A stretch of 31,949 nucleotides of DNA from Clostridia bacterium. Its GTDB lineage: Bacteria > Bacillota > Clostridia > Oscillospirales > CAG-272. Positions within the stretch are counted from its first letter, which is position 1; every line of letters begins with the position of its first letter. This document shows, piece after piece, positions 4,176 through 27,391 of the stretch. The notes beneath the pieces were generated by a model that saw only the letters and a program-made list of their open reading frames with translations, did no database searches and was not told where the DNA came from. The stretch is taken from the NCBI GenBank assembly GCA_900770605.1, contig CAAGKS010000008.1, forward strand, positions 1 through 31,949. The letters run 5' to 3'. Both the position numbers and the translations under genes were made by a program.

Positions 4176-4216
4176 GCAAAGCAATATTCTGCGAGTTGAT
4201 TATTTTTTTGGCGCTT

Positions 4217-4234: not shown

Positions 4235-4281
4235 GAGCGGAATTTACAAAGATGCACTTTGAAAGCAGGAGGAAAGTTCCT

Positions 4282-6294: not shown

Positions 6295-6296
6295 TA

Positions 6297-6485
6297 ATGG
6301 GCGCGGTGGATTACATAGCGATAGCCGTTATCGCGCTTATAATCGGCGCGGCGGTGTCTTACATAATTCGGGCAAAAAGACGCGGCGCAAAATGCGTTGG
6401 TTGCCCATATGCAGATCAGTGTGGTAAGGGCTGTGGCTGTACGCCGCCCCGACCGAATAAAGACCGGAATAACGAAAATAACTAA
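6297..6485 (+). CDS. FeoB-associated Cys-rich membrane protein
   Basis: One TM helix, a basic stretch, then CVGCPYADQCGKGCGC, immediately after feoB. An alternative GTG start exists at 6291. Confidence 0.85.
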   Translation: MGAVDYIAIAVIALIIGAAVSYIIRAKRRGAKCVGCPYADQCGKGCGCTPPRPNKDRNNENN

Positions 6486-6518
6486 AATATAAGATATTAA
6501 AACATAGGGGGTGAAGCT

Positions 6519-8987
6519 GTGCGACAGTATAACGTAACGGGTATGAGCTGTGCCGCTTGCAGTGCAAGGGTGGAAAAAGCAGTTCAGAGCGTTGACGGCG
6601 TTGAGGTATGCTCGGTAAATCTCTTGACAAACTCGATGAGCGTAAGCGGAGATGCAAGTGACGAGGCGATAATCGCGGCAGTTACGAATGCCGGCTACGG
6701 CGCATCAATAAAGGGCGCGGACACATCTGGCAAACGCTCGTCCTCGGACGCGCTTGCCGATAGGGAAACTCCGCGACTCTTCAGGCGTCTGATCTTATCG
6801 CTAACCCTTCTGATCCCGCTGATGTATCTCTCTATGGGATACGTAATGTGGGGATTTCCCCTGCCCGAGCTTCTCGGAAAAAGTCCCCTCGCTATAAGCG
6901 TGATACAGCTTGTATTATGTATTGCCGTTATGGCGGTAAACAGGAGCTTTTTCATAAACGGCTTCAAGGGTCTTATACACGGCTCACCCAATATGGATAC
7001 GCTGGTGTCTATCGGCTCTGCCGCGTCGTTTATTTACAGCGTATACGTGATGATAACTATGGCCTCACACGGCGGCCATGCCCTTCTCCACGACCTTTAC
7101 TTTGAGTCAGCCGCAATGATACTTGCGCTGATAACGTTTGGTAAAATGCTTGAGTCGCGCTCCAAGGGAAAGACCACGAACGCCCTCAGGAGCCTTATGG
7201 ATCTTGCTCCCAAGACGGCAACCGTCCTGCGCGACGGACAAGAGGTGAGCGTGCTCATCGACGAGCTTCGCGTGGGAGACGTATTCGTGGTGCGCTCAGG
7301 CGAGAGCATCGCCGCGGACGGTGTGATCATCGAAGGTCACGGCGCTATCGACGAGTCCAGCTTGACGGGCGAGAGCCTGCCCACCGACAAATCGGTTGGA
7401 GATACGGTAAGCGGCGCGACTATAAATCGCTCGGGATTTCTCAAATGCCGCGCGACGCGCGTTGGAGAGGACACCACTCTCTCGCAGATAATAAAAATGG
7501 TGAGTGACGCGGTTGCCACCAAAGCTCCTATCGCAAAGATCGCAGACAAGGTCTCAGGCGTATTCGTGCCGATAGTTATGGCTATCTCAGCGGTAGTACT
7601 CGCGATCTGGTTTATCGCTACGGCAGACCTTGAATTTGCTCTGTCAAGAGCGATATCAGTATTGGTAATAAGCTGTCCCTGCGCGCTTGGACTTGCCACG
7701 CCCGTTGCTATTATGGTTGGAGGCGGCAAGGGTGCGAAAAACGGGATATTATTTAAAACGGCTACCTCTCTTGAGCTTGCGGGCAAGACACAGATAATTG
7801 CGCTTGACAAAACGGGAACTATCACGGCAGGCACGCCGAAGATGACCGACGTTATCGGCTCTGAGGATCTGCTGACGCTTGCTTATAGTCTTGAACAAAA
7901 GAGCGAGCATCCTATTGCAAGAGCGATCACCGAGGGCGCGGAGCTTGAGGGCATCGCTTCTCTTGAAACAACAGACTTTGACACCTTTGCAGGCAGCGGA
8001 CTGTCCGCCCTCATCGGCGGCGCGCGCATAATTGGCGGAAACGCTGAATTTGTGGGCAGCTACGCTTCTATTCCGCAAAGCGCGTTTGAGAGCGCCAAGG
8101 CGCTCGCGCAAAGCGGCAAGACTGTAACCTTCTTTGCAAAGGACAGTGAATTTCTCGGCATCATCGCGGTATCGGACGTAATAAAGCCCGATAGCGAGCA
8201 AGCGATCACCGAGCTTAAAAATATGGGTATCCGCGTAGTAATGCTCACAGGAGACACGGCAGAGGCGGCAAAGACAATCGCAGGCTCGGTTGGCATTGAC
8301 GAAATAATCTCGGGAGTAAAGCCCGACGGTAAGGAGAACGCTATACGCGAGCTTCAAAGGCACGGAAAGGTTGCGATGGTTGGTGACGGCATCAACGACG
8401 CGCCCTCTCTCACAAGAGCCGATATAGGTATCGCAATAGGCGCGGGCGCAGATATAGCGCTCGACGCGGCGGATATAGTGCTTGTGAACAGCAGGCTCTC
8501 CGACGTTTGCGCGGCGATCCGCCTTGGCAGACGTACCCTGCGGACCATACACCAAAATCTCTTTTGGGCGTTTATCTACAACATCGTATGTATTCCTATC
8601 GCCGCAGGCGCATTCGTATGGGCAGGACTTGCTCTGAACCCCATGATAGGCGCCGCCGCTATGAGCCTATCGAGCTTTTGTGTTGTCACAAACGCGCTCA
8701 GGCTCAATCTGTGTGATCCCCATTCTTCAAAGCACGATAAAAAGATAAGACAAAAAACAAAAAAGGAGCGCAAAGAAATGAAAAAGACGTTAAAGATCGA
8801 AGGAATGATGTGCCCTCACTGTGAGGCAAGAGTTAAGAAGATCCTTGAGGAAACGGAAAACGTTACCGAGGCGATAGTAAGCCACAAGGACGGAACGGCT
8901 ATCGTTTGTATGTCCGCGCCCATCGCTGACGAAACGCTCAAAAAGCTCATCACGGACAACGGATACAAGGTGACCGACATATCCTAA
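6519..8987 (+). CDS. copA: Cu(I)-translocating P1B-type ATPase with N- and C-terminal HMA domains
   Basis: GMSCAAC, TGES, CPC, DKTGT, SEHP and GDGINDAP, the P1B-1 signatures YN and MSLSS, and a C-terminal GMMCPHC. Confidence 0.93.
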   Translation: MRQYNVTGMSCAACSARVEKAVQSVDGVEVCSVNLLTNSMSVSGDASDEAIIAAVTNAGYGASIKGADTSGKRSSSDALADRETPRLFRRLILSLTLLIPLMYLSMGYVMWGFPLPELLGKSPLAISVIQLVLCIAVMAVNRSFFINGFKGLIHGSPNMDTLVSIGSAASFIYSVYVMITMASHGGHALLHDLYFESAAMILALITFGKMLESRSKGKTTNALRSLMDLAPKTATVLRDGQEVSVLIDELRVGDVFVVRSGESIAADGVIIEGHGAIDESSLTGESLPTDKSVGDTVSGATINRSGFLKCRATRVGEDTTLSQIIKMVSDAVATKAPIAKIADKVSGVFVPIVMAISAVVLAIWFIATADLEFALSRAISVLVISCPCALGLATPVAIMVGGGKGAKNGILFKTATSLELAGKTQIIALDKTGTITAGTPKMTDVIGSEDLLTLAYSLEQKSEHPIARAITEGAELEGIASLETTDFDTFAGSGLSALIGGARIIGGNAEFVGSYASIPQSAFESAKALAQSGKTVTFFAKDSEFLGIIAVSDVIKPDSEQAITELKNMGIRVVMLTGDTAEAAKTIAGSVGIDEIISGVKPDGKENAIRELQRHGKVAMVGDGINDAPSLTRADIGIAIGAGADIALDAADIVLVNSRLSDVCAAIRLGRRTLRTIHQNLFWAFIYNIVCIPIAAGAFVWAGLALNPMIGAAAMSLSSFCVVTNALRLNLCDPHSSKHDKKIRQKTKKERKEMKKTLKIEGMMCPHCEARVKKILEETENVTEAIVSHKDGTAIVCMSAPIADETLKKLITDNGYKVTDIS

Positions 8988-9068: not shown

Positions 9069-9117
9069 CAAAAAAGTATATTAAATAATAAAATAATAAA
9101 ATATTTATATAATAGTG

Positions 9118-9146
9118 TTGTTTTTTGACGGTAAATATGTTACAAT
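9118..9146 (+). promoter_or_regulatory. Putative promoter of the nuclease gene
   Basis: TTGTTT-17 nt-TACAAT with a TG extension and an AT-rich upstream region. Confidence 0.5.
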
Positions 9147-9195
9147 AGTGAGTGCTATGATGCAAATCATTAAATTCAGAAAAGGAGATCATTTC

Positions 9196-12100
9196 ATGAA
9201 TCAAATGACCAAGCGCAGTCTGGCATTGCTTATGGTACTCGTAATGTGCATAAGCCTGATACCCGTACTGCATTTTGAAGCGAGTGCCGCCAATGTTACT
9301 TACACATATGACAGCACAGGTAAATACCTCTACAACTGGGGAACTCGCGGAACAACAGCTACATTCCTCTCCCCTAATGCAGAAGCATTCTACACATCTG
9401 GCAACACCTATGACGTTCTTTCCTCTTATTCGGGCGGAACGAGCGCGTCAAACGCTAACAACAGCGCTCTTTACAGAGAGCTCAAAGAGCTGATGACGGA
9501 AAATCACGACCACATAACCAACTACAACGAAACAAGAGACCTTTACAAATACACCGACTGTCAGAACGGCGGCGGAAAAATCTCCTGCTTCTACACGGGC
9601 AAGGAAATCGGACCTGGCTGGGACGGCGGAGCTACCTGGAACCGTGAGCACACCTGGCCCAACAGTAAGGGACTTAATGGCAGCGACGAGAATGACATTA
9701 TGATGCTCCGTCCTACCGATGCAAATACCAACTCCTCACGTGGCAACAAGGCATACGGCGAGGGAACGGGATATTATAATCCCAACAGCGCGTCGAACGG
9801 TCAGCACAACGTTCACGGCGACGTAGCGCGTATAGTACTGTACGTTTACGTTCGTTGGGGCAACACTAACCTTTGGGGCACGGGCGGCGTTATAGAGAGC
9901 CTTGACATTCTTCTTGAATGGATGGAAGAGGATCCCGTTGACACCTGGGAGCTCGGACGTAACGATGCGGTTGAGGCGATCACAGGCACTCGTAACGTAT
10001 TCGTTGACTACCCTGAGTTTGCTTTCCTCCTTTTCGGTGAGGATATCCCCTCAGATATGGATACTCCCTCCGGCGAGGCTTCCGAAAACTGCGGACACAA
10101 CAATTTCGGCGCGGGCGTTGTTACAGCGGCTACCTGCACAACAAACGGCTACACGCTTTACACCTGCAAGACCTCGGGCTGTAATTACAGCTACAAGGCA
10201 AACACCACCGCAGCTCTCGGACACAGCTACACATCAGGCACCTGCACAAGATGCGGCGCGGCAGAGCCCGTTGCTCCCGCTGAGCCCACGTTCGTGACAG
10301 AGATCACTCCCGGTACTCCCTACAAGCTCGGCTTATTCTCTACCGACAAGAGCGCTGAATATTACTTCACAGGTACTATGAGCGGCTACTACGGCGCAAC
10401 GGATACCGACTACACAAAGGGCGTCGACGTATATGCCGAGCAGACCACAGGCGGCTACTACTTGTATTTCAACAATGCTAACGGACAAAAGCAATATATA
10501 AATCTCGTCCTTAGCGGCACGTATTATAACTTCACGTTCTCCTCCACGGCTACCTCGGTATTCGTTTGGGACGCTGACAAGAGCTCCTTCCACACCACCC
10601 TTGCGGATGAGATATGCTACATCGGTACTTACGGAGCTTACGTAACGATGGGAGTTCTCCGCACCTCAAAGCTTCAGGATACCGACTACATCGCCCGTTT
10701 CTATACAACGAGCGGCGGCTCTTCCTCAGGCGGAAGTGACGATATCTGTCAGCACAATTACAACGCGGTAGTAACCGCTCCCACCTGTACAAAGGGCGGA
10801 TACACGACCTACACCTGCACACTTTGCAACGACGTATATACTGGCAACAACACCCCCGCAACAGGCCACAGCTACCAGAACGACGCTTGTACCGCTTGCG
10901 GCGCGGCTAAGCCCAGCGAGGATAGCGCAACCATTACCTTTGACGCCGACAAGACTAATCGTACCGAATACACATCAACTGTTCAGATATGGAGTCAGAA
11001 CGGCATAACGGTAACCAACAACAAGGCTGCCTCGACGAGCAACGTAGGCGACTACTCCAATCCCGCCCGCTTCTACAAGAGCTCCGAGGTCATCATATCC
11101 TTCAAGGGTATGACCAAGGTAGTGATCGATTGCTCCGGTCTTGAAGCAAAATATGTTAATCCTTGGTTGACGCCCGACAACGGCTCGGCAACAGAGGAAG
11201 ATAAGATCGTCACCATCGTATTTGATTCCCCCGTTGACACACTTACGTTCTCTCAGCTCTCTGCTCAGGCGCGCGCGAAATCCATAACCGTATATTCAGC
11301 GTCCGGTGAGCAGGCTCCCTGCACTCACTCCGTTACTACCATCGTTGGAGCTGTTGCCGCTACCTGCACTTCCGCAGGACACACAGGCAAGACAGTTTGC
11401 GCGAACTGTAACGAAGTTATCAACACAGGAAGCACGATAACAAAGAAGCCTCACGCCGAGGTATCTCACGCGGCAAAGGCTCCTACCTGTACTGAAAAGG
11501 GCTGGAACGCTTACGTGACCTGCTCTAACTGCAGCTACTCCACATACACCGAGCTTCCTGCAGCACACAGCCTGGTTTCCCACGCGGCAAAGACTCCTAC
11601 CTGTACTGAAAAGGGTTGGAACGCATATAAGACCTGTAACAACTGCAATTATACCACTTATTCCGAGCTTTCCATGACCGATCACACTCCCGGCGATTGG
11701 ATCATAGATAGCGAGCCTACTCTTGAGGCGGCAGGATCAAAGCACAAGGAATGCACCGCGTGCGGCAAGACCACCGAAACTCAGGTCATTCCCTCTCTTA
11801 CCCACCACTATGATAACGGCGTAGTAACAGCTCCAACCTGTACCGAGCAGGGATACACCACCTACACGTGTACTGACGAGGGCTGCGAACACTCCTACAA
11901 GGACAACTACGTTACCGCAGCAGGACACACCGAGGTCGCTCACGATGCAAAGGCTCCCACCTGTACTGAAAAGGGCTGGGACGCTTACGTGACCTGTGAA
12001 AACTGTGACTACACCACTTACTCCGAAATGAATGCAACAGGACACACCGAGGTCGCTCACGATGCAAAGGCTCCCACCTGTACCGAAAAGGGCTGGGACG

Positions 12101-12642
12101 CTTACGTGACCTGTGATAACTGTGACTACACGACTTACTCCGAGCTTGCCGCTACGGATCATAGCCTGATCAATCACGAGGGCAAGGTTCCCACCTGTAC
12201 GGAGATCGGCTGGGACTTCTACGTAACCTGCGAGAACTGCGATTACACGACCTACGTTGAAGGCGCGGCAACAGGACACGATTTCGATGATTGGGCAGTA
12301 TCCACCGCTCCTACCTGCACTTCCGCAGGCGAAGAGCACAGAGACTGCAAGAACTGTGATCTGTGCGAGACCAGAGAGCTTGCTCAGCTCGACCACAAGG
12401 ACGAGGATGGCGACAAGACCTGTGACCTCTGCGGAAAGCAGGACGAAACCACCAATCCCCCTGCGGATGACAACAACAACGATAACAGCGAAAATGAAAA
12501 CGAAAACGGCGCAAACAGCGGCGAAACTCCCGAGGAAGAAAAGAAATCCGGCTGTGGAAGCGTTATCTACGGTTCTTCTATGATCATAGTTGCGATTATA
12601 GGCGCGGCTGTTACAATGCTTGCAAAGAAGAAAAGAGACTGA
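9196..12642 (+). CDS. Secreted, C-terminally membrane-anchored endonuclease I family (His-Me finger) nuclease with Cys/His-rich repeats
   Basis: Signal peptide (ending ASA); nuclease motifs WNREHTWPNS, NSSRGNK, GDVARIVLY and RNVFVDYPE; about 10 [AP]TCT...CxxC repeats; acidic linker; C-terminal TM plus KKKRD. AAGGAG supports ATG 9196. Confidence 0.88.
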   Translation: MNQMTKRSLALLMVLVMCISLIPVLHFEASAANVTYTYDSTGKYLYNWGTRGTTATFLSPNAEAFYTSGNTYDVLSSYSGGTSASNANNSALYRELKELMTENHDHITNYNETRDLYKYTDCQNGGGKISCFYTGKEIGPGWDGGATWNREHTWPNSKGLNGSDENDIMMLRPTDANTNSSRGNKAYGEGTGYYNPNSASNGQHNVHGDVARIVLYVYVRWGNTNLWGTGGVIESLDILLEWMEEDPVDTWELGRNDAVEAITGTRNVFVDYPEFAFLLFGEDIPSDMDTPSGEASENCGHNNFGAGVVTAATCTTNGYTLYTCKTSGCNYSYKANTTAALGHSYTSGTCTRCGAAEPVAPAEPTFVTEITPGTPYKLGLFSTDKSAEYYFTGTMSGYYGATDTDYTKGVDVYAEQTTGGYYLYFNNANGQKQYINLVLSGTYYNFTFSSTATSVFVWDADKSSFHTTLADEICYIGTYGAYVTMGVLRTSKLQDTDYIARFYTTSGGSSSGGSDDICQHNYNAVVTAPTCTKGGYTTYTCTLCNDVYTGNNTPATGHSYQNDACTACGAAKPSEDSATITFDADKTNRTEYTSTVQIWSQNGITVTNNKAASTSNVGDYSNPARFYKSSEVIISFKGMTKVVIDCSGLEAKYVNPWLTPDNGSATEEDKIVTIVFDSPVDTLTFSQLSAQARAKSITVYSASGEQAPCTHSVTTIVGAVAATCTSAGHTGKTVCANCNEVINTGSTITKKPHAEVSHAAKAPTCTEKGWNAYVTCSNCSYSTYTELPAAHSLVSHAAKTPTCTEKGWNAYKTCNNCNYTTYSELSMTDHTPGDWIIDSEPTLEAAGSKHKECTACGKTTETQVIPSLTHHYDNGVVTAPTCTEQGYTTYTCTDEGCEHSYKDNYVTAAGHTEVAHDAKAPTCTEKGWDAYVTCENCDYTTYSEMNATGHTEVAHDAKAPTCTEKGWDAYVTCDNCDYTTYSELAATDHSLINHEGKVPTCTEIGWDFYVTCENCDYTTYVEGAATGHDFDDWAVSTAPTCTSAGEEHRDCKNCDLCETRELAQLDHKDEDGDKTCDLCGKQDETTNPPADDNNNDNSENENENGANSGETPEEEKKSGCGSVIYGSSMIIVAIIGAAVTMLAKKKRD
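11921..12154 (+). repeat. Intragenic 117-bp tandem duplication (39-aa Cys/His repeat)
   Basis: Copies start at 11921 and 12038, with 3 mismatches in the first 106 nt. More diverged copies lie near 11450-11670 and 12160-12280. Confidence 0.9.
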
Positions 12643-12704: not shown

Positions 12705-12735
12705 GCTCCGCGCCCGAGATCACCGGGCGCGGAGC
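12705..12735. terminator. GC-rich hairpin, probable terminator
   Basis: GCTCCGCGCCCG-agatcac-CGGGCGCGGAGC between convergent genes. An A-run just upstream gives a U-tract on the minus strand. Confidence 0.65.
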
Positions 12736-12782: not shown

Positions 12783-12821
12783 AAAAGGCGTTTGGGAGAA
12801 GCTCCCAAACGCCTTTATTTT
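12783..12821. terminator. Bidirectional intrinsic terminator
   Basis: AAAGGCGTTTGGGAG-aag-CTCCCAAACGCCTTT directly after the stop of the minus-strand lipoprotein. Confidence 0.85.
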
Positions 12822-12825
12822 ATTA

Positions 12826-15042
12826 TCAGTTGTGATAGAATTCGAATACAACGGAGAGACCGCCCTGAGTAAGAGTAACGGTTTCAGCAGCCTGGAATGC
12901 AGCCACGAGAGCAGCGTGCTCCGGAACTGTTCCAAGCGCGTTGCCTGCGAGGTCTACGAAGGTAACGCCGTTGAAGTAGATCGTGTATGCCATTCCGCTT
13001 TCATCGTAAACTGTGAAGAAAGGAGGCATCTGCGCGCCTGCCGACTGAGCGTACTCGGAAATACCCTTAATGGTTGCCCAGTGTATATTTTCAGCGCTGA
13101 GAGTTCTATCCATTCCGCTGCCGTCTACAAAGAGCTGACCCTGAGCGGAAATACCTGTGATGATCTGAGCCGCATCGCTACCATTTGCCATAAGAGCACC
13201 TGTAATGTTCATCTTATTAGCAGAGTCAACGTACGTGCCGAGTCCTGCCTGACCAAGCGCAGCTCCAAGGCTCTTGATGCCGCCAACGATGGTATTTGCG
13301 CCAACTGCGGTGAACCAGATCTCAGTTCCCTCTACGTTCGTCTTGATCAAGGAATTGGTAGTAATAACGGTGGGATGCCAGTTTTCATCGGCAAGGCTCT
13401 GCGCGATAATAACAGGACCGCCGCAGCCTTCAACGTAAGAATCCTCAAACGTAAGAGTGGCCGCGCCCCATACGAAAGCGGCGTTCTGATAAGTGTCAAA
13501 GCACTTTGCATTGCTTACGTGCATCTTTCCAAGATCGGCAAAGTAAGTGATAAAGTAAGAGTTTCCGATAATGTTATCCATTGTAACAGTTGCGGAGCAT
13601 CTTGACTTGCAGAATATCAAGCCGCCTGCAGATGCAAGGTTTTCGTTAGCATCGATGAGGTAATCTCTCTTAGCGTTACCTATCAAGGAAAGGTTGGAGA
13701 TCGTGTAATTGAAGGAATTCAAGGGGTACGGATTAGCATCAAATTCCTCGTTAGAGAGCTGAGAGCTGAAGGCAAAGAGTGTAACGTTGGAGAAGTCACT
13801 CTTATAGTCCTTCTCTGCATCAGGTCCGAACACTGCGGGAGAAGCAACGAGCGGGAAGTCGCTTGTATCGAGAAGGAAGAAGTTACCCTCGATCACGAAT
13901 GCTGTACCGCGGCGATCGTAGATCTCGATCTCGTCCTTGATGAACTTTGTTCCTGCGGGAACTGTAACCGTGGAGTTATCTATCGTATTGGTATATACTA
14001 CCTCTTTGTCGGTCGTATAAAGATAGCTCTGAGGAATATCGTCTGCCGTTACCTTGATGTTGTTGTGAAGAACGATGCCGGAAACGTCAACGCCGAGCAA
14101 GCCGTACTCTGCCTTGATCTCATTCCAAGCGGTGTCATAGTTATCAACAACGGAGAGCTGCCAAGCCTCGTAAACGTTATACGCCTTGATGACGTTCGCT
14201 ACGAGAGTAACGGGAGCAAAGGGAGTTGTTGCGGTGTAGTACTCCTCTGAGGGAAGCACGGCGATCTTAACCTTGCTGCCTGCGGCCTCGGGTGAGAACT
14301 GATAAACGCCCTTGTAGGTATCTACGGTTGCGATAGTTGTCTGTCCGTCTGCGTAAGTAACTGTGTTATTCTCTCCGGCGGTCTTGGTAAGAGCAACGAA
14401 CTCGCCGTTCTTCTCAACGTAGATCTCAACTACGGAGTAGAAGGAATCAAGCTCGATAACGGCATCGCCGTCCTCGGAAAGAACTGCAAACTGAGGATTA
14501 AGCTTGAACTCGTTTTCGTTACCGATAACGTAAGTCTTGCCACCAACTGCAAACTGTCCGAAGAAGCCTGACTCGCCGTACTCGGTCTGACCTGCTGTGG
14601 AGTTGTTGCTATCAAACTGTGTCAGTGACGAGGGCTTTTCAAACTGAACTGCAAGAAGCGGATCGGTGTTATCGCCCATCTGAGGCTCTTTGCTGACCTT
14701 GATAATGATCTTGGTCTCCTGCTTTACGTTAAGGTGAGGATCGTTAAAGGATACGATAACCTCCTTATCACCCTCAGTAGCGGTTATATCCTCCGCATAG
14801 GTGATCGTAAGCTCATCATATGTGTATATCTTATTCAGATTTTCATCGGAATACTTTGCGATAGCCTTGATACCGGAGAAATCGATCTCTTCACCAATAA
14901 GATAATTGGTCTTGATAGAGGTGCGGTCAACGGTAAAGGATTCAAGCTTCAATGCGCCGTCCTTTTTACACGCCACAAACGAAAGCGCCAGAACTAAGGC
15001 TGCTAAGATGAGAATGATTTTGGCAAATTTGCGAAGTTTCAT
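12826..15042 (-). CDS. Large uncharacterised lipoprotein with an N-terminal bacterial Ig-like domain and a probable beta-helix C-terminal region
   Basis: Lipobox FVAC. KTNYLIGEEIDFSGIKAIAKYSD resembles Big_3-type Ig repeats. The C-terminal half has periodic short beta strands (ISNLSLIGN, VTMDNIIGN, MHVSNAKC, LTFEDSYVEGCGGPVII). GGAGG RBS. Confidence 0.75.
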   Translation of the reverse strand: MKLRKFAKIILILAALVLALSFVACKKDGALKLESFTVDRTSIKTNYLIGEEIDFSGIKAIAKYSDENLNKIYTYDELTITYAEDITATEGDKEVIVSFNDPHLNVKQETKIIIKVSKEPQMGDNTDPLLAVQFEKPSSLTQFDSNNSTAGQTEYGESGFFGQFAVGGKTYVIGNENEFKLNPQFAVLSEDGDAVIELDSFYSVVEIYVEKNGEFVALTKTAGENNTVTYADGQTTIATVDTYKGVYQFSPEAAGSKVKIAVLPSEEYYTATTPFAPVTLVANVIKAYNVYEAWQLSVVDNYDTAWNEIKAEYGLLGVDVSGIVLHNNIKVTADDIPQSYLYTTDKEVVYTNTIDNSTVTVPAGTKFIKDEIEIYDRRGTAFVIEGNFFLLDTSDFPLVASPAVFGPDAEKDYKSDFSNVTLFAFSSQLSNEEFDANPYPLNSFNYTISNLSLIGNAKRDYLIDANENLASAGGLIFCKSRCSATVTMDNIIGNSYFITYFADLGKMHVSNAKCFDTYQNAAFVWGAATLTFEDSYVEGCGGPVIIAQSLADENWHPTVITTNSLIKTNVEGTEIWFTAVGANTIVGGIKSLGAALGQAGLGTYVDSANKMNITGALMANGSDAAQIITGISAQGQLFVDGSGMDRTLSAENIHWATIKGISEYAQSAGAQMPPFFTVYDESGMAYTIYFNGVTFVDLAGNALGTVPEHAALVAAFQAAETVTLTQGGLSVVFEFYHN

Positions 15043-15047
15043 TTTTC

Positions 15048-15569
15048 TTAATCCTCCTGAATATTAGGGTCTGTATTTTTAGGAATTCTTCCCATTATAA
15101 CGACCTGCGTGCTCTTGTTGGAGCCGTCGATCGCTTTGATGGTAACAGTAATAGCGCGGTTAGGCTGCAGGAATACGAAGGTCCTGGAGATCTCGTGGAA
15201 TACCACAACTCCCTCCATAGCGTCCTTGTCATACTCGAAAATTACTCCCGTTTCATCTGCAAGATGAGGAAATACCTCATAATTGATCTGAACCGCGTTG
15301 GGATTTTGGACGATACTTTCGTCATCAGTCGTATAAGGCTCGTCCTCAGGCGCCGAAATGAAATCGAACATAAACAACGGCTTTCCGTCAAGGTTTTGCT
15401 TTGGATCAAGCGTAACGGGCTCCTGATTGTGAATCGTTATAGACTCACAGTAGATCTCGTCAACGTAAGTAATACCGTCAAAGACCTTGATCTCAAGTCC
15501 GAAGAAGTTAACGACAGCGATCGACGCTATATATACTACAAGGATAACGATAACTATAGTCTTCTTCAT
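15048..15569 (-). CDS. Membrane-anchored hypothetical protein with a probable Ig-like domain
   Basis: N-terminal hydrophobic helix. YEVFPHLAD and ITVTIKAIDGSNKS resemble Big_2-type strands. The start overlaps the upstream stop (TAATG). Confidence 0.75.
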   Translation of the reverse strand: MKKTIVIVILVVYIASIAVVNFFGLEIKVFDGITYVDEIYCESITIHNQEPVTLDPKQNLDGKPLFMFDFISAPEDEPYTTDDESIVQNPNAVQINYEVFPHLADETGVIFEYDKDAMEGVVVFHEISRTFVFLQPNRAITVTIKAIDGSNKSTQVVIMGRIPKNTDPNIQED

Positions 15570-17272
15570 TATTGCTTCTCCTTGTAAAACGCTTTGATTT
15601 TAGAAAGATACGTAAATATCTTCAAGCCTGCGAACAGGATAGATGCGATAGCGAGCTTCGTCCACGCTCCGAAGTCGGGGCGAGATGACAAAAACAATGC
15701 GATCACGAACACAACGGCGGAAATGATTATCGCCGATATACCTGCGTGAGACTCGTTAGGATTGTTGGACTGTGCGCTGAACGTGGCGTACTGCTTGTAC
15801 TGAGGGTTCATGATATCGCTCTCTGCGCAAGAGAACAGATGCGCTACGTAAACGCCGTAGATAAGTATCGCTATCTTTATAGCATCAGGCGCGGTAAGCC
15901 CCGATTCGATAGCAAAGATATTTACTGAGAATATAACTCCCGCAAGCGCGATGATCATCGGGAACACCAGCTTTGACACCAGAAGCTTTGCATAAGGAGC
16001 AGGCTGCACCTTATTGAGATACGAGCTTGCGCCGTCTCGGCTGTAAACCGAAGCTATATCAATGTTGGTCATAAGCAGCAAAAGCAGCATGATGACTACG
16101 TTGAAGCAAATGGTCATCTGAGTACCGAGGAAACGCGTGTTCATTGCGGAATAAAGCTTATTGAGCAGATATATCGCCATAGGCATAGCGACTATGAGGA
16201 TAGCTCCAAGCTTGATAAAGGAATTGGAACGAAGTCCAACGATAAATTCCTTCTTGATAGCGGATATAAAGGGTGTGAGCTTTGCATTCTTCTTCTCATT
16301 GATAGAGTTCTTCTTCTTGAACTCAAAGGGAGTTGACGCCATGCGGTAGAACAACGGCTTTGAGCAAACGAAGCACAAAAGAAGCAGTAGGACGCCTGCG
16401 CCTATCAACACCAGAAGACTGATAAGCGTCTTGGAATGGAAAATAACGCTTGAAAGTCCAACCGTCTTACCCACGATCAGCTCGGTGAATGCATAAAGCG
16501 GAGCAAAGGTACGCGTGTAATTCGAGAGGAACTCCTGAATGTCCCAATAGGTCTCGCCCCAGGTCTCAATAAAGTTTATATTCTCAGGCACAAGTCCGAT
16601 CAGATCCCACAAAAGAAGTATCGCGCTCGATGCAAGTGCAATATAGAGGATATACTGTATCACCTTGAAGCGATTGAGAAAGATATAGGCGAACATTGCG
16701 GGGATGGATATGAGCGCCGCCGCAAGAACGGGAATTACCGAGATAAGCGCAAACATAAGGATAAGCCAAGGGTAATAATACAGAGCGTATCCCTTCACTA
16801 TTCCGTATGCGATAAACATCGGAATGGTAAACATAAAGCTCTTTCTGAACTCGTAAACGTAATAGGTTGCGAGCTTAGAGAAGAAAACGAGCGATGAGGT
16901 TGCAGGGAAAGTCAATATCAGCGCGTTGTCGCCCGAGAAATACAAGGACTTTACAAGTCCTATCGTGTCCGTGACAAGCGACAGCAGCAGCATTATTGAA
17001 AACACAAGCGATATTACCGAAACGGGAATATCGTGTACGAGCGAAAACAGTCCAAGCAGCTTTATAAAATAGAATATGACTGCAATGACCGCCGTGATTG
17101 CAACGAATTCGATCAACAGCCAGACTATTTTAAAGATCAGACTTCTGAGCGAGCTTGTATATCCCAAGTCCATTTTTTCCTTGAGCTGCATCTTGACGAG
17201 CGTTTTGAGCGCTCGGAAGCTCTCGGAAAAGGACTCGAAAAAGCCGCTCTTCTTTACCTTGTTCGTAGTCAT
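15569..17272 (-). CDS. Multi-pass ABC transporter permease (exporter-like)
   Basis: 567 aa with many hydrophobic segments in two similar halves (LYFSGDNALILTFP...FFSKL and YSRDGASSYLNKVQP...LVSKL). ATGA overlap with the ATPase gene. Confidence 0.8.
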   Translation of the reverse strand: MTTNKVKKSGFFESFSESFRALKTLVKMQLKEKMDLGYTSSLRSLIFKIVWLLIEFVAITAVIAVIFYFIKLLGLFSLVHDIPVSVISLVFSIMLLLSLVTDTIGLVKSLYFSGDNALILTFPATSSLVFFSKLATYYVYEFRKSFMFTIPMFIAYGIVKGYALYYYPWLILMFALISVIPVLAAALISIPAMFAYIFLNRFKVIQYILYIALASSAILLLWDLIGLVPENINFIETWGETYWDIQEFLSNYTRTFAPLYAFTELIVGKTVGLSSVIFHSKTLISLLVLIGAGVLLLLLCFVCSKPLFYRMASTPFEFKKKNSINEKKNAKLTPFISAIKKEFIVGLRSNSFIKLGAILIVAMPMAIYLLNKLYSAMNTRFLGTQMTICFNVVIMLLLLLMTNIDIASVYSRDGASSYLNKVQPAPYAKLLVSKLVFPMIIALAGVIFSVNIFAIESGLTAPDAIKIAILIYGVYVAHLFSCAESDIMNPQYKQYATFSAQSNNPNESHAGISAIIISAVVFVIALFLSSRPDFGAWTKLAIASILFAGLKIFTYLSKIKAFYKEKQ

Positions 17273-19527
17273 ACCGTAACTCCGTCAGACGCTTCTTCGT
17301 GCTCAGCCTGCTTTACAGAAACGGGATCCTGAGTATTTCCGTCTATCATTTCCATATAGAACTGCTCAAGCGGGATACCGCTCTCCTTGATCTCTGCCAT
17401 CGTCTTTGAGCAAAGTATCTGTCCCTTGCGGATAATAGCTATGTGATCGCACACGTTCTCAACAACGTCTATCAAGTGGCTGGAGAAGAATACGATATTG
17501 CCGCGGGAAGCGTGCTCCTTCATACATTCTTTGACCTGGAAGATAGATTCGGGGTCAAGTCCCGTAAGAGGCTCGTCCAATATCCATATCTTAGGATTAT
17601 GCACGAGAGCTGACATAATGGTTATCTTTTGCTTCATACCGTGAGAGTAGGTCTTCATCGGGTTATCGATAGCGCTCTCCAGACGGAATCTCGAAATATA
17701 CTCCGCCATACGCTGATTGCGGTCCTCCTTTGATACGTTATAGAGGTCTGCAATATAGTTGATATACTCTCTGCCCGTAAGATTTTCGTAAAGCGCGTAA
17801 TGGTCGGGAACGTATCCGATCTGCATCTTCGCCTCAACGGGCTGCTTGTTAACGTCAAAGCCCGATACCTCGATCTCACCCGAGGTTATGGTCTGAATAC
17901 CGACGATAGTCTTGATGATAGAGGACTTACCGGCTCCGTTCGGGCCAAGGAAGCCGAATATCTGACCGCCGTCGATCTCAAGATTTGCTTTATAAACAGC
18001 GTACACGTCGCTGGTGGAATAACGCTTTGAAAAATCACGAAGGATAAGCTTGCCCTCGTTTTGAGGATTCATAGGTTCCTGCATACTTCTTCCTGCAAGG
18101 TGTACCTCCAGAGCGAGTCTGTCAGCCTTGATCTTGCGGTTCCTTTCCATGATGATTTTGTAAGTATCGGAAATTTCAAACGCCTGCTCGTAAACAAACC
18201 ACATTGCAAGCGAAAGAACGATGTAAACGATAAAGTACAACGCCTGGTAAACAGGATAAAGCACGAATTTGAGGTCCTTATAATAAAACGTCACAGTTAT
18301 CTTACGCAGATCCTCTGCCCACTGACCGAGCTTCTCCGCAACGAAATCGGAGTTGATAAAGAAGAAGTCAACGCCTGAATCGTAGTTGGTGAGCCACGCG
18401 TTTGCGATCAGTATGAAAACGTAATATCCGAAAAACGCGATAAGCGAGTACCAGAACTGCTTTATCTTTGGGCGCCCAAATATTCCCAGACTCATTACCA
18501 GAAGCGGCAGTATCGTTGCTGCATAGTGGTTTGCCCAGAACAGCAAGGACGACGTGGAGAGCCACTGCTCGCAGGTATCGGGCATGATCATTGCGAAAAA
18601 CGCTCCAAGCACGTTTATAAAGATGGTGAAGTAATAGAGCCTGTCCATCTTGAATATCAAAACGAGCGGAACTATAAACATTGCCGTGTGGCAAAGGTGC
18701 AACGGCCAGGTCGTTGGGTGAATAAACGTTGAAAAATCGTATTTGCAGCAGAACGAGATCATCATCGCAAGGCTTATGTATATAAGCGCGTAACGTCTCT
18801 GCTCATACTGACATTTTGAAAACAACAGATGTACGATAACGAAAAACGCTATCGAGCCGTAAATAAACAGACGGTGGAAGAGCGTGAAGTTATCAATCAC
18901 TATCGCGTCGCTACCAAGTCCGAAGAGCACCTGAGGCACCCAGTGAGGCAGCGAGATAGCAAGCATTCCCGCGAATATAAGCGCGGATCTGAGCGCGTGG
19001 CGAGAGGATATTTTCTCTTTCTCTCCCCTTTTCGCACTCAACTGATACAGCGCAAGTCCAAGTCCTATTCCAAGCTCTATCGCGAACACGAGCAGTCTGT
19101 AATGGAAGCCGTCCGCAAGGTTGCCGTCAAGAGCGCGGTTGAGCATCGGTATTGCGATTATCGAAGCCGCGTACGTAAACGTGGCAACGTAACGGGCTAT
19201 CGGAGCTACGCGCGGCAAATGCTTTTCAAAAAACGGGAACGTAACTCCCACGAGCTGTACCGCCGCGATAAGCCAGAGCAAAAGCGCGGAAAGCATGGCA
19301 AGTACACCGCCCTGCGCGCCGAAAGGCGAATATACGTTTCTTCCGATAGTGTTCTGTATCGCAGGCACTCCGCCAAAGCTTCTCACAAAGAAAACTACGG
19401 CATATACGAGTGCAACTATTTGAGTATTTGTAAAGCGCTTAGCGCAAAAAAGCTTATTTTTAAAGCCAAAAAGAAACCATAGCGTCAGCGCAGAAAATAA
19501 CAACGCCGCGCCGTAATATAAAAACAT
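17269..19527 (-). CDS. Fusion of a YwaF/TMEM164-like integral membrane region with a C-terminal ABC ATPase
   Basis: About 450 hydrophobic N-terminal residues with WPLHLCH, FWANH and N-x8-DFFFIN. The C-terminal NBD has GPNGAGKS, YSHGMKQK, ILDEP and SSH. GAGGTG 9 nt before ATG 19527; alternative GTG at 19539. Confidence 0.85.
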   Translation of the reverse strand: MFLYYGAALLFSALTLWFLFGFKNKLFCAKRFTNTQIVALVYAVVFFVRSFGGVPAIQNTIGRNVYSPFGAQGGVLAMLSALLLWLIAAVQLVGVTFPFFEKHLPRVAPIARYVATFTYAASIIAIPMLNRALDGNLADGFHYRLLVFAIELGIGLGLALYQLSAKRGEKEKISSRHALRSALIFAGMLAISLPHWVPQVLFGLGSDAIVIDNFTLFHRLFIYGSIAFFVIVHLLFSKCQYEQRRYALIYISLAMMISFCCKYDFSTFIHPTTWPLHLCHTAMFIVPLVLIFKMDRLYYFTIFINVLGAFFAMIMPDTCEQWLSTSSLLFWANHYAATILPLLVMSLGIFGRPKIKQFWYSLIAFFGYYVFILIANAWLTNYDSGVDFFFINSDFVAEKLGQWAEDLRKITVTFYYKDLKFVLYPVYQALYFIVYIVLSLAMWFVYEQAFEISDTYKIIMERNRKIKADRLALEVHLAGRSMQEPMNPQNEGKLILRDFSKRYSTSDVYAVYKANLEIDGGQIFGFLGPNGAGKSSIIKTIVGIQTITSGEIEVSGFDVNKQPVEAKMQIGYVPDHYALYENLTGREYINYIADLYNVSKEDRNQRMAEYISRFRLESAIDNPMKTYSHGMKQKITIMSALVHNPKIWILDEPLTGLDPESIFQVKECMKEHASRGNIVFFSSHLIDVVENVCDHIAIIRKGQILCSKTMAEIKESGIPLEQFYMEMIDGNTQDPVSVKQAEHEEASDGVTV

Positions 19528-19646: not shown

Positions 19647-19675
19647 ATTATATCACAAATATGATATAATGTAAA
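19647..19675 (-). promoter_or_regulatory. Putative promoter of the four-gene ABC operon
   Basis: Minus strand TTTACA-17 nt-TATAAT with a TG extension, overlapping the inverted repeat ATTATATCA-N6-TGATATAAT. Confidence 0.65.
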
Positions 19676-20370: not shown

Positions 20371-21345
20371 TTATTTATAGGTTGCCGTAAAGATTATATG
20401 TTGATCATAGTCGCCGAAATTTCCGCCGAAGAGGTTAAATCCGCCCGGGTGCTGAGCGTCCTTTTTTACCTCTATGCCGAATATAGTCTTATTACCCTCC
20501 TGCAACCCCAGATCATAAAGACCGACGCTCTTGTTCACCAATCTTTCGTTGAGATACACGCCGCTCGATCTGATGCTTATATTGGTAAGAAGCCCGTATT
20601 TCGTGCTTTCGGGATACCACCAGCTCGGCGTGAATTTTCCGTATCGGTCGCCGTAATCTCCGGGGGAGACAAACGTACAGATATCGGTCCCGTTTATCGA
20701 AAAGGTAATATCGCTCGGGTAGTCGTTATTAAATCCGGGCGCTTCGGAGCAGATCTCAAGAGAAATTTTGATCTCATCAAGCTTTCCCTGCTGCGCGTAA
20801 TTGTTTGGAATAGCATAAACAAGCGAGCCGTAGCCCTGTGACCAGATTATCTGGGCATCGTGGCGTCCCGAAACGAAGACGTTGTGAGGGTCTCCGCTCA
20901 TAATTTGCTTTTGAGCGGTAGCAATACCGCACTGATCCGAAAACTCGGCATCGATATATTCGCCAATGTTTATCTGATATACGAACGGCGTCAGGCTTTC
21001 GGGCTTGGAGCGTCCGTTTGAGTTTCTGAAACGGATTATAGCTATATTCGTAACGTAGGTATACCAATGAAGTGTGCCCTTTCCCTTGGTGGAGAAGCTT
21101 TTTTTGATAATACCCGCCTCTTCAAGAATATTAAGGTGAAATATGGTCGAGGAGAGCGGCAGATTAAGCTCTGAGGCTATCTCGGACGCGAGCATATTCT
21201 TCTTGTTGACCAAACGGATCATTTGTATTCGGACAGGTGACGAAAGTGCTCTGCCCAGAGCAGCGAGGTGCGTCGTATCCTTAGTACCCTCGATATCATA
21301 TATTATTTTGCTATCTTCAACGAAGTCAATATCGTGCTCTTGCAT
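20371..21345 (-). CDS. ArsR-type HTH regulator with a large C-terminal domain (COG4189-like, sugar-locus associated)
   Basis: ALSSPVRIQM...EIASELNLPLSSTIFHLNILEEAGII HTH; C-terminal LEICSEAP, PSDITF, PGDYG..G...P.WW, YGLL and GGFNLFG..FGDY.Q motifs. AAGGAG 6 nt before ATG 21345. Confidence 0.85.
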   Translation of the reverse strand: MQEHDIDFVEDSKIIYDIEGTKDTTHLAALGRALSSPVRIQMIRLVNKKNMLASEIASELNLPLSSTIFHLNILEEAGIIKKSFSTKGKGTLHWYTYVTNIAIIRFRNSNGRSKPESLTPFVYQINIGEYIDAEFSDQCGIATAQKQIMSGDPHNVFVSGRHDAQIIWSQGYGSLVYAIPNNYAQQGKLDEIKISLEICSEAPGFNNDYPSDITFSINGTDICTFVSPGDYGDRYGKFTPSWWYPESTKYGLLTNISIRSSGVYLNERLVNKSVGLYDLGLQEGNKTIFGIEVKKDAQHPGGFNLFGGNFGDYDQHIIFTATYK

Positions 21346-21379
21346 CATTTTCTCCTTATTTTTTATTAGGTACAGTAAT

Positions 21380-21408
21380 ATTGTACCACACAACTTAGTC
21401 AAATGCAA
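21380..21408 (-). promoter_or_regulatory. Putative promoter of the ArsR-type regulator
   Basis: Minus strand TTGCAT-17 nt-TACAAT with a TG extension. Confidence 0.6.
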
Positions 21409-21743
21409 GATTTTTTATGTTTTTTCAGTTGAAAAATTGTCACTTTTGTTGTAAAATAATAATTAGATATAACTTTAATATGAAAATATGTGCAATTTGC
21501 ATTGTAATTACCACGGCATAAGACCTTACTTACTTCCCTTCCTTATATATTTAAAAGCAGATCGGTGCTTTTATCCCGCACTTGAACGCAGCACGATATA
21601 ATATCACTCGTCAAAAGAGCCCAAGCGCAATCACCGAAAAAACGACACACGTCGTCAATCGAGCGCGATGGGATCTTCGCTACACAAAAGCTGAATAATA
21701 AATTGCTTTTTCACAAAAGCGGTATAATTATAAATTTATTATA

Positions 21744-21774
21744 TGATAGTTTCGCAACGAATAAAAAACTATCA
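21744..21774. promoter_or_regulatory. Candidate operator or leader hairpin of the sugar operon
   Basis: TGATAGTTT-N13-AAACTATCA between a TATAAT (21723-21728) and the AGGAGG RBS. Confidence 0.45.
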
Positions 21775-21795
21775 AAGTTACAGGAGGCAAAAAGT

Positions 21796-23604
21796 ATGAA
21801 GAAAACCTTTAGTAGAGTACTGGCATTGGTGCTGGTATTAGTTATGGCGGCAGGACTCGTTGCCTGCAAACCCCAGACACCCGCAGAAGCAGGTGACAGA
21901 ACCGTTATTTACTATGCGGCTTCTTTCGTAGATGCACAGATGCAGGCGGCTTACACCGAAATGGTAGACACCTACAACAAAACACAGGGTGTTATTGACG
22001 GTGTATACGTCCAGTTCCGTGCAAACCCCGGTGTAATTTCCGGCTTGGAAAGCGCGTTGCGCAACAACTATCAGTACGACGTTATCGAGCTCAAGGACGA
22101 TGCATTTAAGTCATTGGCTACAAACGGCGATTTCTTTGTTAATCTCGACAGCTATCTCACAGATGAAGCTAAGGCTAAGATGAGCTGGAGCGATATTCCC
22201 GAGCCTTTGATCAACCGTTACCGCTTGAACACTACCAAGTCTGCAAACGGCAAGTACCAGGCAGGCGAGGGCGCAAGCCTTTTGGCTCTCCCCAACGGTA
22301 GCGATCCCCAGATGCTGTTCTACAACAAGAACATGATGACCGCATCAGGCATCAACATCATTTCCGTTCCCGAGAGCGAGCTGGCAGCTTATAATGCCGC
22401 TAACAACGCAACTCTCATGCCTCACGGCTATGCTGAATACAAGGTTGCTCCCTTTGCAGGAGCTAAGAGCAGCACCAACCAGGCAGGCAAGACCGTTTAT
22501 AAGGTATTCAATGAGAGCATCGGTATGAACTGGGAGGAGCAGCGTTGCCTCGCCAGCCAGTTCACGACCTCCGATCAGTACGGCTTCGTAAGTGAGTGGT
22601 GGTTCAATATGGGCTTCTCCGTTGGCGCTGACTGTATCGGTTGGGACGCAGCTTCCAACAACTACAAGCTCACCCTCGGTGACAAGCAGCCCGGTTATCT
22701 TGCTTTGGCAGATATTACGGTAAACGGCAACAATTACAGCAAGGGCGAGGTCCTTGGCTATGAAGACAAGACCTTCTTGAACAACAATGCATCCGCTCTC
22801 GGAGCTTTGAACGGCAAGATCTACGCTCTTCCCTCTACATATGATGCAATTCTGGAATTCACCCGTTTGGGCGTTCCCTCCAATAAGCAGACTGACGACG
22901 GTATTTACGGCTACGGCGTTGCACCTTCCACCACAGAGGCCCGCAACCAGCTCTTTACCTCCGGCAAGTGCCTTATGCTCGTTGAGGACTTCCGCAACAT
23001 CCAGTCCTTCAAGAACGTGCTCGGCTCCGGCTTGGGTATGGCTGTTACTTCCCAGTACCGTGAGTACGTTGGCGGCAGCACCTACACTGAAAACGGCAAG
23101 GAATATCTGAAGGTTATCGGCGAGACCTACAACGGTCAGGTCTACACCGGTGAGCTTCACATGGAAAACGGCACACCTATCGTTGGTGAGGCTGCAACCG
23201 AAAGCGAATCCTTGGGTCTCTTCCTTCCTAAGAATACTAAGAATAAGAATTACGACGAAGCGTTCAAGTTTGCTTCCTGGGTAGCAGGTCCCGAGGGCCA
23301 GACAATTCTGGCAAAGGGCAATAAGTACGTTCCCAACCAGACCTCTATCGGTATGGGCGATGCTTACAACTCTTCCTCCGACCGCCTTATCTCTAACATG
23401 TGGGCAGGCAGCTTCCTTGCGCAGAACGCAGACATCGGTGACTACACCTACTTCACCTCTACGACATGGATCACCGAATGGTCCGTACCGTTCAACACCA
23501 CCGTTCGTGAAGGTAACATGAAGCTTGCTGACTTCTTTGCACAGTATGAGAATACTGCAAACAACCTGTTAAAGGGTATGACACTTTACATCAACAGGAG
23601 ATAA
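21796..23604 (+). CDS. Carbohydrate ABC transporter substrate-binding lipoprotein
   Basis: Lipobox LVAC; SBP family-1-like motifs LDSYL, LALP...LFYNKNM and AFKFASWVAGPEGQ. AGGAGG RBS supports ATG 21796. Precedes two permeases. Confidence 0.88.
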   Translation: MKKTFSRVLALVLVLVMAAGLVACKPQTPAEAGDRTVIYYAASFVDAQMQAAYTEMVDTYNKTQGVIDGVYVQFRANPGVISGLESALRNNYQYDVIELKDDAFKSLATNGDFFVNLDSYLTDEAKAKMSWSDIPEPLINRYRLNTTKSANGKYQAGEGASLLALPNGSDPQMLFYNKNMMTASGINIISVPESELAAYNAANNATLMPHGYAEYKVAPFAGAKSSTNQAGKTVYKVFNESIGMNWEEQRCLASQFTTSDQYGFVSEWWFNMGFSVGADCIGWDAASNNYKLTLGDKQPGYLALADITVNGNNYSKGEVLGYEDKTFLNNNASALGALNGKIYALPSTYDAILEFTRLGVPSNKQTDDGIYGYGVAPSTTEARNQLFTSGKCLMLVEDFRNIQSFKNVLGSGLGMAVTSQYREYVGGSTYTENGKEYLKVIGETYNGQVYTGELHMENGTPIVGEAATESESLGLFLPKNTKNKNYDEAFKFASWVAGPEGQTILAKGNKYVPNQTSIGMGDAYNSSSDRLISNMWAGSFLAQNADIGDYTYFTSTTWITEWSVPFNTTVREGNMKLADFFAQYENTANNLLKGMTLYINRR

Positions 23605-23607
23605 TCT

Positions 23608-24591
23608 ATGGCCCGAAAGAAGTTACTCACGGAGAACCAGCAGATTAAAAAGCGCAAGTGGAAAAAGGAACAGATCTTCGCGTTTATCGTTGCATCCGTT
23701 CCCCTGGTTGGCTTTATCGTTTTTAATGGTTTTCCTTTGCTGATATCTTTCATAGGTATGTTTAGCAACGTGGATCTTTACGATCTCTCTAATATCCAAT
23801 GGAATAATTTTGAGGGCTTCAAGTCCGTATTTATCCCGGGACACGCCTATGAGCTATTTTACTTTGATCTATCTAAATATTTTTACAAGGCTTTAATCAT
23901 AACTGTGTGGATCGCATCCGCACAGTTGGTCACCCTTGCGATCGCGCTCTTTATTGCTACGCTTTTGCATCAAAAGCCCAAGGGCGCAAAGATGTTCCAG
24001 ATATTGTTCTTCGTGCCTTATATCTGCTCCACAGTTGCGGTTTCTCTCATGTGGAGATGGATGTTTGCCAGCGACGGCGGAATTTTAAATGCTATCCTTG
24101 GCACAAACATCGACTGGCTGCGCGATCCGAGCACGATCACCTGGACGATCATTGCGGCAGTCATCTGGCAAGCACCCGGTTACGGTATCGTTATGTATAA
24201 GGCGGCATTTACAGGAATCAACAAGTCCTTGTACGAGGCTGCTGACGTAGACGGCGCAAACATCTGGCAGAAATTCTGGCGCGTGACCGTGCCGAGCATC
24301 AGCCCCACTACCTTCTTCTTGCTTCAGGCAGGAGCAATGGCGGGCTTGCTTACCTACGACCTCGCAGTTTTGATCATTCCTGACGCTTGGGGCTCTCCCG
24401 GCGGCGTGGAGTCTATGGGTCTTACCCTGATCCGTTTGGTATATTACCTGATCACAAATGCTTCCACCAGCGATGCCAACGGCGTAAGCTACATGGTTTC
24501 CTGCGCTTGTGTAATAAGCTGGATGCTTTTCCTTGTGACCGGTACGATATCTATGATCATGTTCCGACTCAGAGAAAAGAGCTTGAAGTAA
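23608..24591 (+). CDS. Carbohydrate ABC transporter permease (MalF-type)
   Basis: FFVPYICSTVA, GILNAILG, and the EAA loop LYEAADVDGANIWQKFWRVTVP. Confidence 0.93.
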   Translation: MARKKLLTENQQIKKRKWKKEQIFAFIVASVPLVGFIVFNGFPLLISFIGMFSNVDLYDLSNIQWNNFEGFKSVFIPGHAYELFYFDLSKYFYKALIITVWIASAQLVTLAIALFIATLLHQKPKGAKMFQILFFVPYICSTVAVSLMWRWMFASDGGILNAILGTNIDWLRDPSTITWTIIAAVIWQAPGYGIVMYKAAFTGINKSLYEAADVDGANIWQKFWRVTVPSISPTTFFLLQAGAMAGLLTYDLAVLIIPDAWGSPGGVESMGLTLIRLVYYLITNASTSDANGVSYMVSCACVISWMLFLVTGTISMIMFRLREKSLK

Positions 24592-24606
24592 AGGACGGTG
24601 ACGAAT

Positions 24607-25482: not shown

Positions 25483-25496
25483 ATGGAGGTACTTCA

Positions 25497-27380: not shown

Positions 27381-27391
27381 GGAGGGGCGTT

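Follow-up and report, generated by a model that had tools for sequence, protein, structure and literature searches.

What might a bacterium achieve by fusing a membrane-embedded lipid enzyme to the motor of a transporter? The question is raised by four genes on the minus strand of a 31,949-nucleotide stretch of DNA from a Clostridia bacterium (assembly GCA_900770605.1, contig CAAGKS010000008.1), here called the window. Gene 1 joins a membrane domain of the TMEM164/YwaF type to an ATPase of the ATP-binding cassette (ABC) type, gene 2 encodes a permease, gene 3 a small anchored protein and gene 4 a large lipoprotein. The operon is a real, conserved and hitherto undescribed architecture built from known folds. 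Its newness lies in this architecture; its function we infer. At a probability of about 0.4, the four genes make up a membrane machine that captures lipid from outside and reuses the acyl chains, ATP-coupled capture being combined with re-acylation. A more specific version is doubtful: an ABC motor would drive an outward-facing, pseudo-dimeric TMEM164-type transacylase that is fed by a stalked, lipid-catching lipoprotein, and fatty-acid-auxotrophic gut bacteria would thereby take acyl chains from phospholipids of the host or of neighbours. This would be a new class of ABC machine.

The fusion itself is well documented. Among 8000 candidates, 479 proteins matched residues 1-455 of gene 1, and 118 of the best 120 homologues listed of these 479 carry both domains. 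The fusion is therefore not an artefact of the assembly, nor is it unique to it. At 50% identity, 191 representatives match; of the best 150 listed, 94 are at least 420 amino acids long, 60 of them with and 34 without the ATPase. One extended TMEM164 protein (P0232) is fused to DUF805 and not to an ATPase.

A Pfam scan finds PF14808 at residues 214-420 of gene 1 with 65.6 bits (curated cut-off 25); TIGR02206 scores 56.3 bits, which is under its cut-off of 75. The sequence-only reading had called the entire membrane region of about 450 residues YwaF/TMEM164-like. The family is right, yet PF14808 covers only the second half. The core of this active domain aligns with the profile of stand-alone YwaF proteins at 99.8% (HHalign), and the expected alignment of the putative catalytic residues was found as well: Cys279 and His334 fall on a cysteine and a histidine that are present in 64/64 stand-alone YwaF proteins. 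In the dyad, Cys279 occupies the nucleophile position on core helix 2 and the invariant His334 lies on core helix 4. Each is kept in 90 of the 94 long representatives, Cys279 in 56/60 fused and 34/34 unfused ones, His334 in 57/60 and 33/34, respectively; one fused row did not align. The motifs noticed earlier, WPLHLCH at 18688-18708 and FWANH (residues 330-334), are both present. PLHLC, taken earlier for the hallmark of the family, is not the motif of human TMEM164, which has N121-P122-C123-H124 instead (PMC12830759).

The first half of the membrane region escaped ordinary searches. Residues 1-210 had no match in Atlas and none in Pfam, and the repeat was detected only by profile-profile comparison. 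Residues 1-205 align with the profile of the 64 stand-alone YwaF proteins at 94.6% (HHalign, E 7e-8, 143 columns). The controls stayed low: at most 0.5% for the halves of the permease, 10-14% for reversed profiles and no more than 18% for any of 25 block shuffles. This repeat lacks the dyad: Trp85 stands at about the position of the cysteine and Leu152 at that of the histidine. Helices 1-6 share the orientation of helices 7-12. We read the membrane part as a tandem pair, a dead repeat followed by an active one, which may form an internal pseudo-dimer.

Family hydropathy yields 13 helices, in agreement with the AlphaFold model of gene 1 (predicted local distance difference test, pLDDT, 77). The topology is oriented by the cytoplasmic ATPase; the seven segments assumed to be inside have a Lys/Arg density of 0.17-0.28, the seven outside ones one of 0.02-0.07. 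Since the ATPase anchors the chain inside and the Lys/Arg density alternates cleanly, the dyad is predicted to face the outer side of the membrane: helix 9 would carry Cys279 at its outer end, and His334 would lie some two turns deep in helix 11, counted from outside. Fold searches with the whole gene 1 model were filled by ATPases. When the membrane region or its profiles were searched against PDB sequences, nothing relevant came up and no 9LW1, the entry of human TMEM164; we regard the weak rows of RND pumps (E no better than 0.02) as noise from hydrophobic sequence.

The nucleotide-binding domain of gene 1 is intact, as had been claimed. ABC_tran matches residues 514-654 (Pfam), and Walker A (528), the Q-loop region (572), the signature YSHGM (627), Walker B/D-loop (647) and the H-loop (682) are invariant across 22 aligned homologues. 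NosF is the second structural match of the ATPase in VIA; the first is discussed below. The permease, gene 2, matches PF16949 at 36.1 bits (cut-off 25.7), and its Atlas rows are PF16949/PF09847. It has 13 hydrophobic peaks, one of which is probably a coupling segment. Its halves do not align overall; a weak alignment (33%, E 4.5e-4) is seen between its two putative coupling segments. A profile search of gene 2 for solved structures found none.

The four genes stay together. In loci on genome contigs they are found together in 13/14 cases, and the remaining contig ends after gene 3. Among fused loci from related genomes, 11 are complete (one duplicates L012), 2 reach contig edges and 1 begins inside gene 1. 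All four genes are present in 32/52 metagenome loci, a set that includes near-duplicates and 18 loci cut by contig ends; 19 have the order of the window, 12 have gene 4 first and 1 has a YwaF gene inserted, while L131 and L173 are the 2 exceptions. The neighbourhood survey thus bears out the expected conservation of the gene set. Deviations are few: L135 carries a stand-alone YwaF gene inside the operon, before gene 4; L175 has as its fourth gene a 1359-amino-acid lipoprotein-like open reading frame, unmatched by gene 4 profiles; and L173:3-671 holds a gene 1 homologue with a truncated ATPase followed by unrelated genes, either a pseudogene or a chimeric contig. A survey of 30 loci for a fifth conserved gene beside the operon found none: every other neighbour recurs in 4/30 loci or fewer. 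In one clade only (L014, L017, L018), a membrane protein of 133-146 amino acids and an NADH:flavin oxidoreductase lie upstream of gene 1, and stand-alone PF14808 copies lie directly upstream of the operon in L026 and L028.

A sister operon, found at eight loci, tells more about the history. Here the parts are split: membrane domain, separate ATPase, permease, a longer anchor protein with Big_2, and lipoprotein, in this order. The head of its lipoprotein is homologous to that of gene 4 (HHalign 97.1%, reversed control 0.2%), and several genomes contain both the fused and the split form. In a tree of 44 core domains (midpoint root; every fourth stand-alone protein taken; L076 left out, as the motif was not found), 20 fused rows (support 98/98) are sister to 7 split rows (99/99), with joint support of 96/91. 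Because the sister operon keeps the ATPase as a separate gene and the two forms are sister clades, the partnership of enzyme and ABC transporter likely predates a single fusion event. Within the Clostridia rows sit two from Bacilli, a hint of possible horizontal spread. The split form also fits the proposal that the fused membrane region is not the translocation channel, since there this region is a gene of its own.

For both surface proteins the earlier reading is supported. Gene 3 has a conserved N-terminal anchor with an invariant Gly24 in the alignment. Big_2 is found in 11/23 members, not in the copy of the window, for which Pfam gives no match; no alignment was obtained between gene 3 and the first Ig domain of gene 4. 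Gene 4 is a surface lipoprotein with lipidated Cys25, stalk and head. Pfam gives a weak Big_3 match under the cut-off, and the model (pLDDT 88) shows Ig domains and then a right-handed beta-helix (about 285-738) with helical inserts. Across the family its length ranges from 718 to 2245 amino acids, mostly through extra Big_3 repeats, with the head retained; a conserved head at a variable distance on a stalk fits a part that reaches past the wall. In 29 heads, Gly572, Trp576 and Phe577 (Gly-x-x-x-Trp-Phe) are invariant and are followed by a hydrophobic helix. In at least 27/29 heads 20 positions are conserved, mostly Gly, Asn, Pro or aromatic residues. One carrier (G005) has an orphan second gene 4 copy of 1514 amino acids (L073:3864-8408, G005:C80) near a recombinase-like open reading frame.

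The carriers come from uncultured Eubacteriales, Clostridia and Bacilli. The operon is present in at least 7/48 genomes of the genus, at least 9/250 of the family and at least 2/398 of the class, and the membrane profile detects it in none of 200 of the order and in none of 300 of the phylum; the large searches scored 2-8 candidates per genome, and the counts are floors. The distribution is patchy and rare. Fatty-acid synthesis is missing from many uncultured gut lineages (PMC6784871). The gene fabF is present in 0/28 distinct carriers and in 0/2 further carriers that are 100% complete, fabD in 0/5. The gene lgt is found in 29/29 carrier handles and 35/36 non-carriers, lnt in 11/16 carriers of the family, 21/36 non-carriers and 1/12 carriers outside the family. 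The operon is no replacement for Lgt or Lnt. As markers of carriers, losses of fabF, plsY, lgt and lnt were each tried, and none separates them from their kin. Stand-alone PF14808 genes occur within the family in 14/16 carriers versus 14/36 non-carriers (p=0.002, the kin not being independent). The carriers thus look like fatty-acid auxotrophs rich in PF14808 enzymes; auxotrophy alone does not predict the operon. Five small genomes (G066, G788, G704, G784 and G792) have 7-9 PF14808 genes each, an expansion of an uncharacterised enzyme family. Lnt exceeds its cut-off in 33 of the 64 Gram-positive genomes scored for it; G031 (L026) has its copy downstream of gene 4, at a distance of about 2 kb.

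No characterised system with this four-gene layout was found, as had been supposed: the literature searched contained no description of the operon and no ATGY-family enzyme coupled to an ABC transporter, and what was found gives no function for bacterial YwaF proteins. A close relative with a known function is human TMEM164 (PF14808; PDB 9LW1), a phospholipid:lyso-ether-lipid transacylase of the same Pfam family with the same seven-helix domain. Cysteine and histidine are 55 residues apart in gene 1 and 58 in the human enzyme, with an aromatic residue at His-4 and a conserved Gly in between. The acyl donor of human TMEM164 is a phospholipid, not acyl-CoA (10.1101/2022.07.06.498872; PMC12830759), which suits a site at the outer leaflet. 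The human enzyme is a homodimer (PMC12830759), whereas gene 1 has two repeats in one chain, the extra one dead, and an ATPase joined to them. With the bacterial YwaF proteins (TIGR02206, uncharacterised, about 250 amino acids) it shares P-x-x-x-C and the histidine; it differs from the stand-alone forms in having twice their length, a clade of its own, a score below the TIGR02206 cut-off, an operon context and, mostly, no membrane glutamate.

Other systems share parts of the plan. LhaT (YpjA) of Bacillus subtilis, a lipoprotein N-acetyltransferase, belongs to the same ATGY superfamily, works at the outer face and uses a lipid-borne acyl donor (PMC12345273); it is, however, of the DUF1405 branch, acts alone with PcrB/YvoF, and the available text describes no ABC partner. 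DUF1405/YpjA is absent from gene 1, where a Pfam scan of the membrane region gives PF14808 only. LplT-Aas likewise pairs a transporter with an acyltransferase to recycle lysophospholipids (PMC11416262), but the proteins are unrelated, Aas acylates on the cytoplasmic surface, the system is Gram-negative and, as far as the source was available, has no surface lipoprotein. In EcsAB-RasP of B. subtilis, too, an ABC-2-like ATPase is coupled to an intramembrane enzyme. The Nos system, NosDFY(L), combines an ABC transporter with a beta-helix partner and a lipoprotein. The partners in both are non-homologous to those seen here, and for gene 2 no EcsB or NosY match was reported.

How, then, might the machine work? 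Two copies of gene 1 would flank one gene 2 permease, because ABC ATPases function as dimers. Gene 4 would bind exogenous phospholipid or lysolipid beyond the wall, and gene 3 would relay it. Cys279 may then accept an acyl chain as a thioester, as in human TMEM164, and pass it to a lyso-acceptor or to water. A lipid is the expected donor, since an outward site cannot use cytoplasmic acyl-CoA or acyl-ACP. ATP would finally serve to flip the product inward or to clear the leftover, detergent-like lysolipid. We favour such lipid capture because the distance of the head varies, the N-terminus of gene 4 shows no conservation, carriers keep Lnt and none of those tested has fabF. The wealth of stand-alone PF14808 genes in carriers, some of them next to or inside the operon, also speaks for it, as does the 99%-complete carrier G734, in which fabF, fabD, plsX, plsY and DegV were not found. 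What the machine binds, which way it transports and how its subunits touch are inferred. The sequence-only reading had proposed an acyl-transfer enzyme tethered to an ABC transporter and working with two surface proteins; family, dyad, gene set and surface proteins stood up, whereas any substrate or transport direction is putative.

Several observations speak against lipid capture. Pumps of the ABC-2 type are mostly exporters. The head of gene 4 folds like pectate lyases, tailspikes and adhesins, which bind glycans or proteins more often than lipids. Over 30 loci, no gene of lipid metabolism is among the conserved neighbours. The chemistry may differ as well: a membrane glutamate is present in 11/94 operon-type domains versus 46/64 stand-alone YwaF proteins, and asparagine follows the cysteine in 71/95 operon-type domains; therefore, the metal site of the human enzyme (Glu106/His124/His181) is probably not retained, Glu106 and His124 being apparently not conserved as judged from spacing only. 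The mapping onto human residues is by Pfam match and spacing, with no direct alignment. Non-carrying kin lack fabF as well, in 32/36 genomes (present in 4/36; p=0.12); the proposed co-occurrence with lost fatty-acid synthesis is thus consistent but does not discriminate, and organisms without fatty-acid synthesis can live without the operon. DegV/FakB occurs in 9/10 carriers checked, and plsY in 26/28 carriers (36/36 non-carriers). G734 (L032, L074), which is 99% complete and matches none of fabF, fabD, plsX, plsY, DegV and lnt, has CdsA, three PlsC-family and five AMP-binding genes, and the latter two groups could supply acyl chains in another way.

The alternative that survives best, though we consider it unlikely, is a maturation machine for gene 4. 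At the outer face, the enzyme would attach, shift or take off an acyl group on the N-terminal cysteine of gene 4; positioning or extracting gene 4 for surface display would fall to the ABC part together with gene 3. LhaT, the sole characterised bacterial ATGY member found, N-acetylates lipoproteins outside the cell (PMC12345273), and the dyad is predicted to face the same way. Moreover, the gene 4 head occurs in 14/15 fused-operon genomes, the miss having its operon on a 2.3-kb contig, and in 0/63 genomes scored without the operon; a genome with the split form only is also unmatched. Yet LhaT is of the YpjA branch and not of YwaF, the residues after the lipidated cysteine of gene 4 vary freely in 28 copies, and around genes 1-3 of L131 there is no gene 4 for 6 kb downstream and 8 kb upstream. 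General N-acylation, the form in which lipoprotein modification had been considered before, is weakened by the similar retention of Lnt in carriers and non-carriers of the family, and Lgt is kept in every carrier handle.

We hold it to be quite unlikely that the machine is a detoxifying exporter, in which outer-leaflet lysolipids or similar gut amphiphiles are hydrolysed or re-acylated and the products pumped out by the ABC part, much as RasP, an intramembrane protease, is served by EcsAB. In structure, the ATPase indeed matches EcsA of the RasP-EcsA model (9a6w) best, RasP activity requires EcsAB (PMC7478892), and the AIG1/ADTRP branch of the superfamily consists of hydrolases (10.1101/2022.07.06.498872). 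A similarity of 31% between ATPases, however, says little about the substrate, and two obligatory surface proteins and a long stalk are left unexplained. That the machine exports and acylates a surface glycan or glycolipid, a polymer which the beta-helix would bind or trim, appears somewhat less likely still. The head of gene 4 resembles polysaccharide lyases, methylesterases and tailspikes (VIA Z 11-15, root-mean-square deviation 3-5, about 200-260 residues, no clear best), but only two acidic positions, D335 and D370, are conserved to at least 90% in the 29 heads, and neither a glycosyltransferase nor a polymerase recurs beside the operon in 30 loci. That a passenger domain was fused by chance to an ordinary exporter is very improbable: two-repeat proteins do occur without ABC in carrier genomes (L076, L078), but the idea is largely refuted by the split operon, which has the membrane-domain gene first in 8/8 loci, by the common clade of fused and split domains and by the dyad conserved in both.

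The operon ties an uncharacterised YwaF-type enzyme to an ATPase and a defined surface protein and thus makes the question of function testable. If the transacylase-ABC reading is true, it would give the bacterial YwaF proteins a function and suggest lipid supplements with which these lineages might be cultured.

Table 1. Features of the operon in the window (positions count from its first nucleotide).
Feature	Position	Strand	Description
Gene 1	17269-19527	minus	752 amino acids from ATG 19527; 13 predicted membrane helices and ABC ATPase
Gene 1, residues 1-205	18913-19527	minus	six helices; degenerate YwaF/TMEM164-like repeat (profile-profile comparison)
Gene 1, residues 206-450	18178-18912	minus	TMEM164/YwaF domain, seven helices (PF14808)
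Gene 1, Cys279	18691-18693	minus	predicted on outer side
Gene 1, His334	18526-18528	minus	predicted on outer side
Gene 1, ATPase domain	17338-18057	minus	ABC-2/EcsA-like; full motif set; long helix joins it to the membrane part
Gene 2	15569-17272	minus	567 amino acids; full-size ABC-2-type permease, PF16949/PF09847-like, about 12 helices
Gene 3	15048-15569	minus	173 amino acids; N-terminal membrane anchor and one Ig-like domain
Gene 4	12826-15042	minus	738 amino acids; lipoprotein, Ig-like stalk, right-handed beta-helix head
Sigma-70-like promoter consensus	19647-19675	minus	TTTACA-17-TATAAT with TG; 11/12 matches
Terminator-like hairpin	12784-12816	minus	15 pairs; 3' of gene 4
Second hairpin	12705-12735		faces convergent gene

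At the locus itself, the four minus-strand genes and their junctions (ATGA, TAATG, then a gap of 5 nucleotides) are all present as described before. AAGAGGT lies 10 nucleotides upstream of the ATG of gene 1 and overlaps an alternative GTG at 19539; the domain positions were renumbered from a 756- to the 752-amino-acid frame. For the single promoter and strong terminator that had been proposed, the hairpin was found, but both signals are consensus matches only, the promoter because the scan yields 17 sites versus 11.8 +/- 3.9 by chance. Guanine-plus-cytosine content at third codon positions is 0.53-0.59 in the operon (genome median 0.58), so it does not look recently acquired; a plasmid search gave no match.

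The remainder of the window is largely ordinary: TrkA/TrkH, FeoB and a heavy-metal P-type ATPase at 313-8987, and at 20371-29245 an ArsR-type regulator and, divergent from it, a sugar ABC importer, a GH43 hydrolase and a repeat-containing protein. The gene at 9115-12642 of the plus strand, convergent on the operon, encodes a surface protein of 1175 amino acids that combines an Endonuclease I domain with Cys/His-rich repeats and is anchored at its C-terminus.

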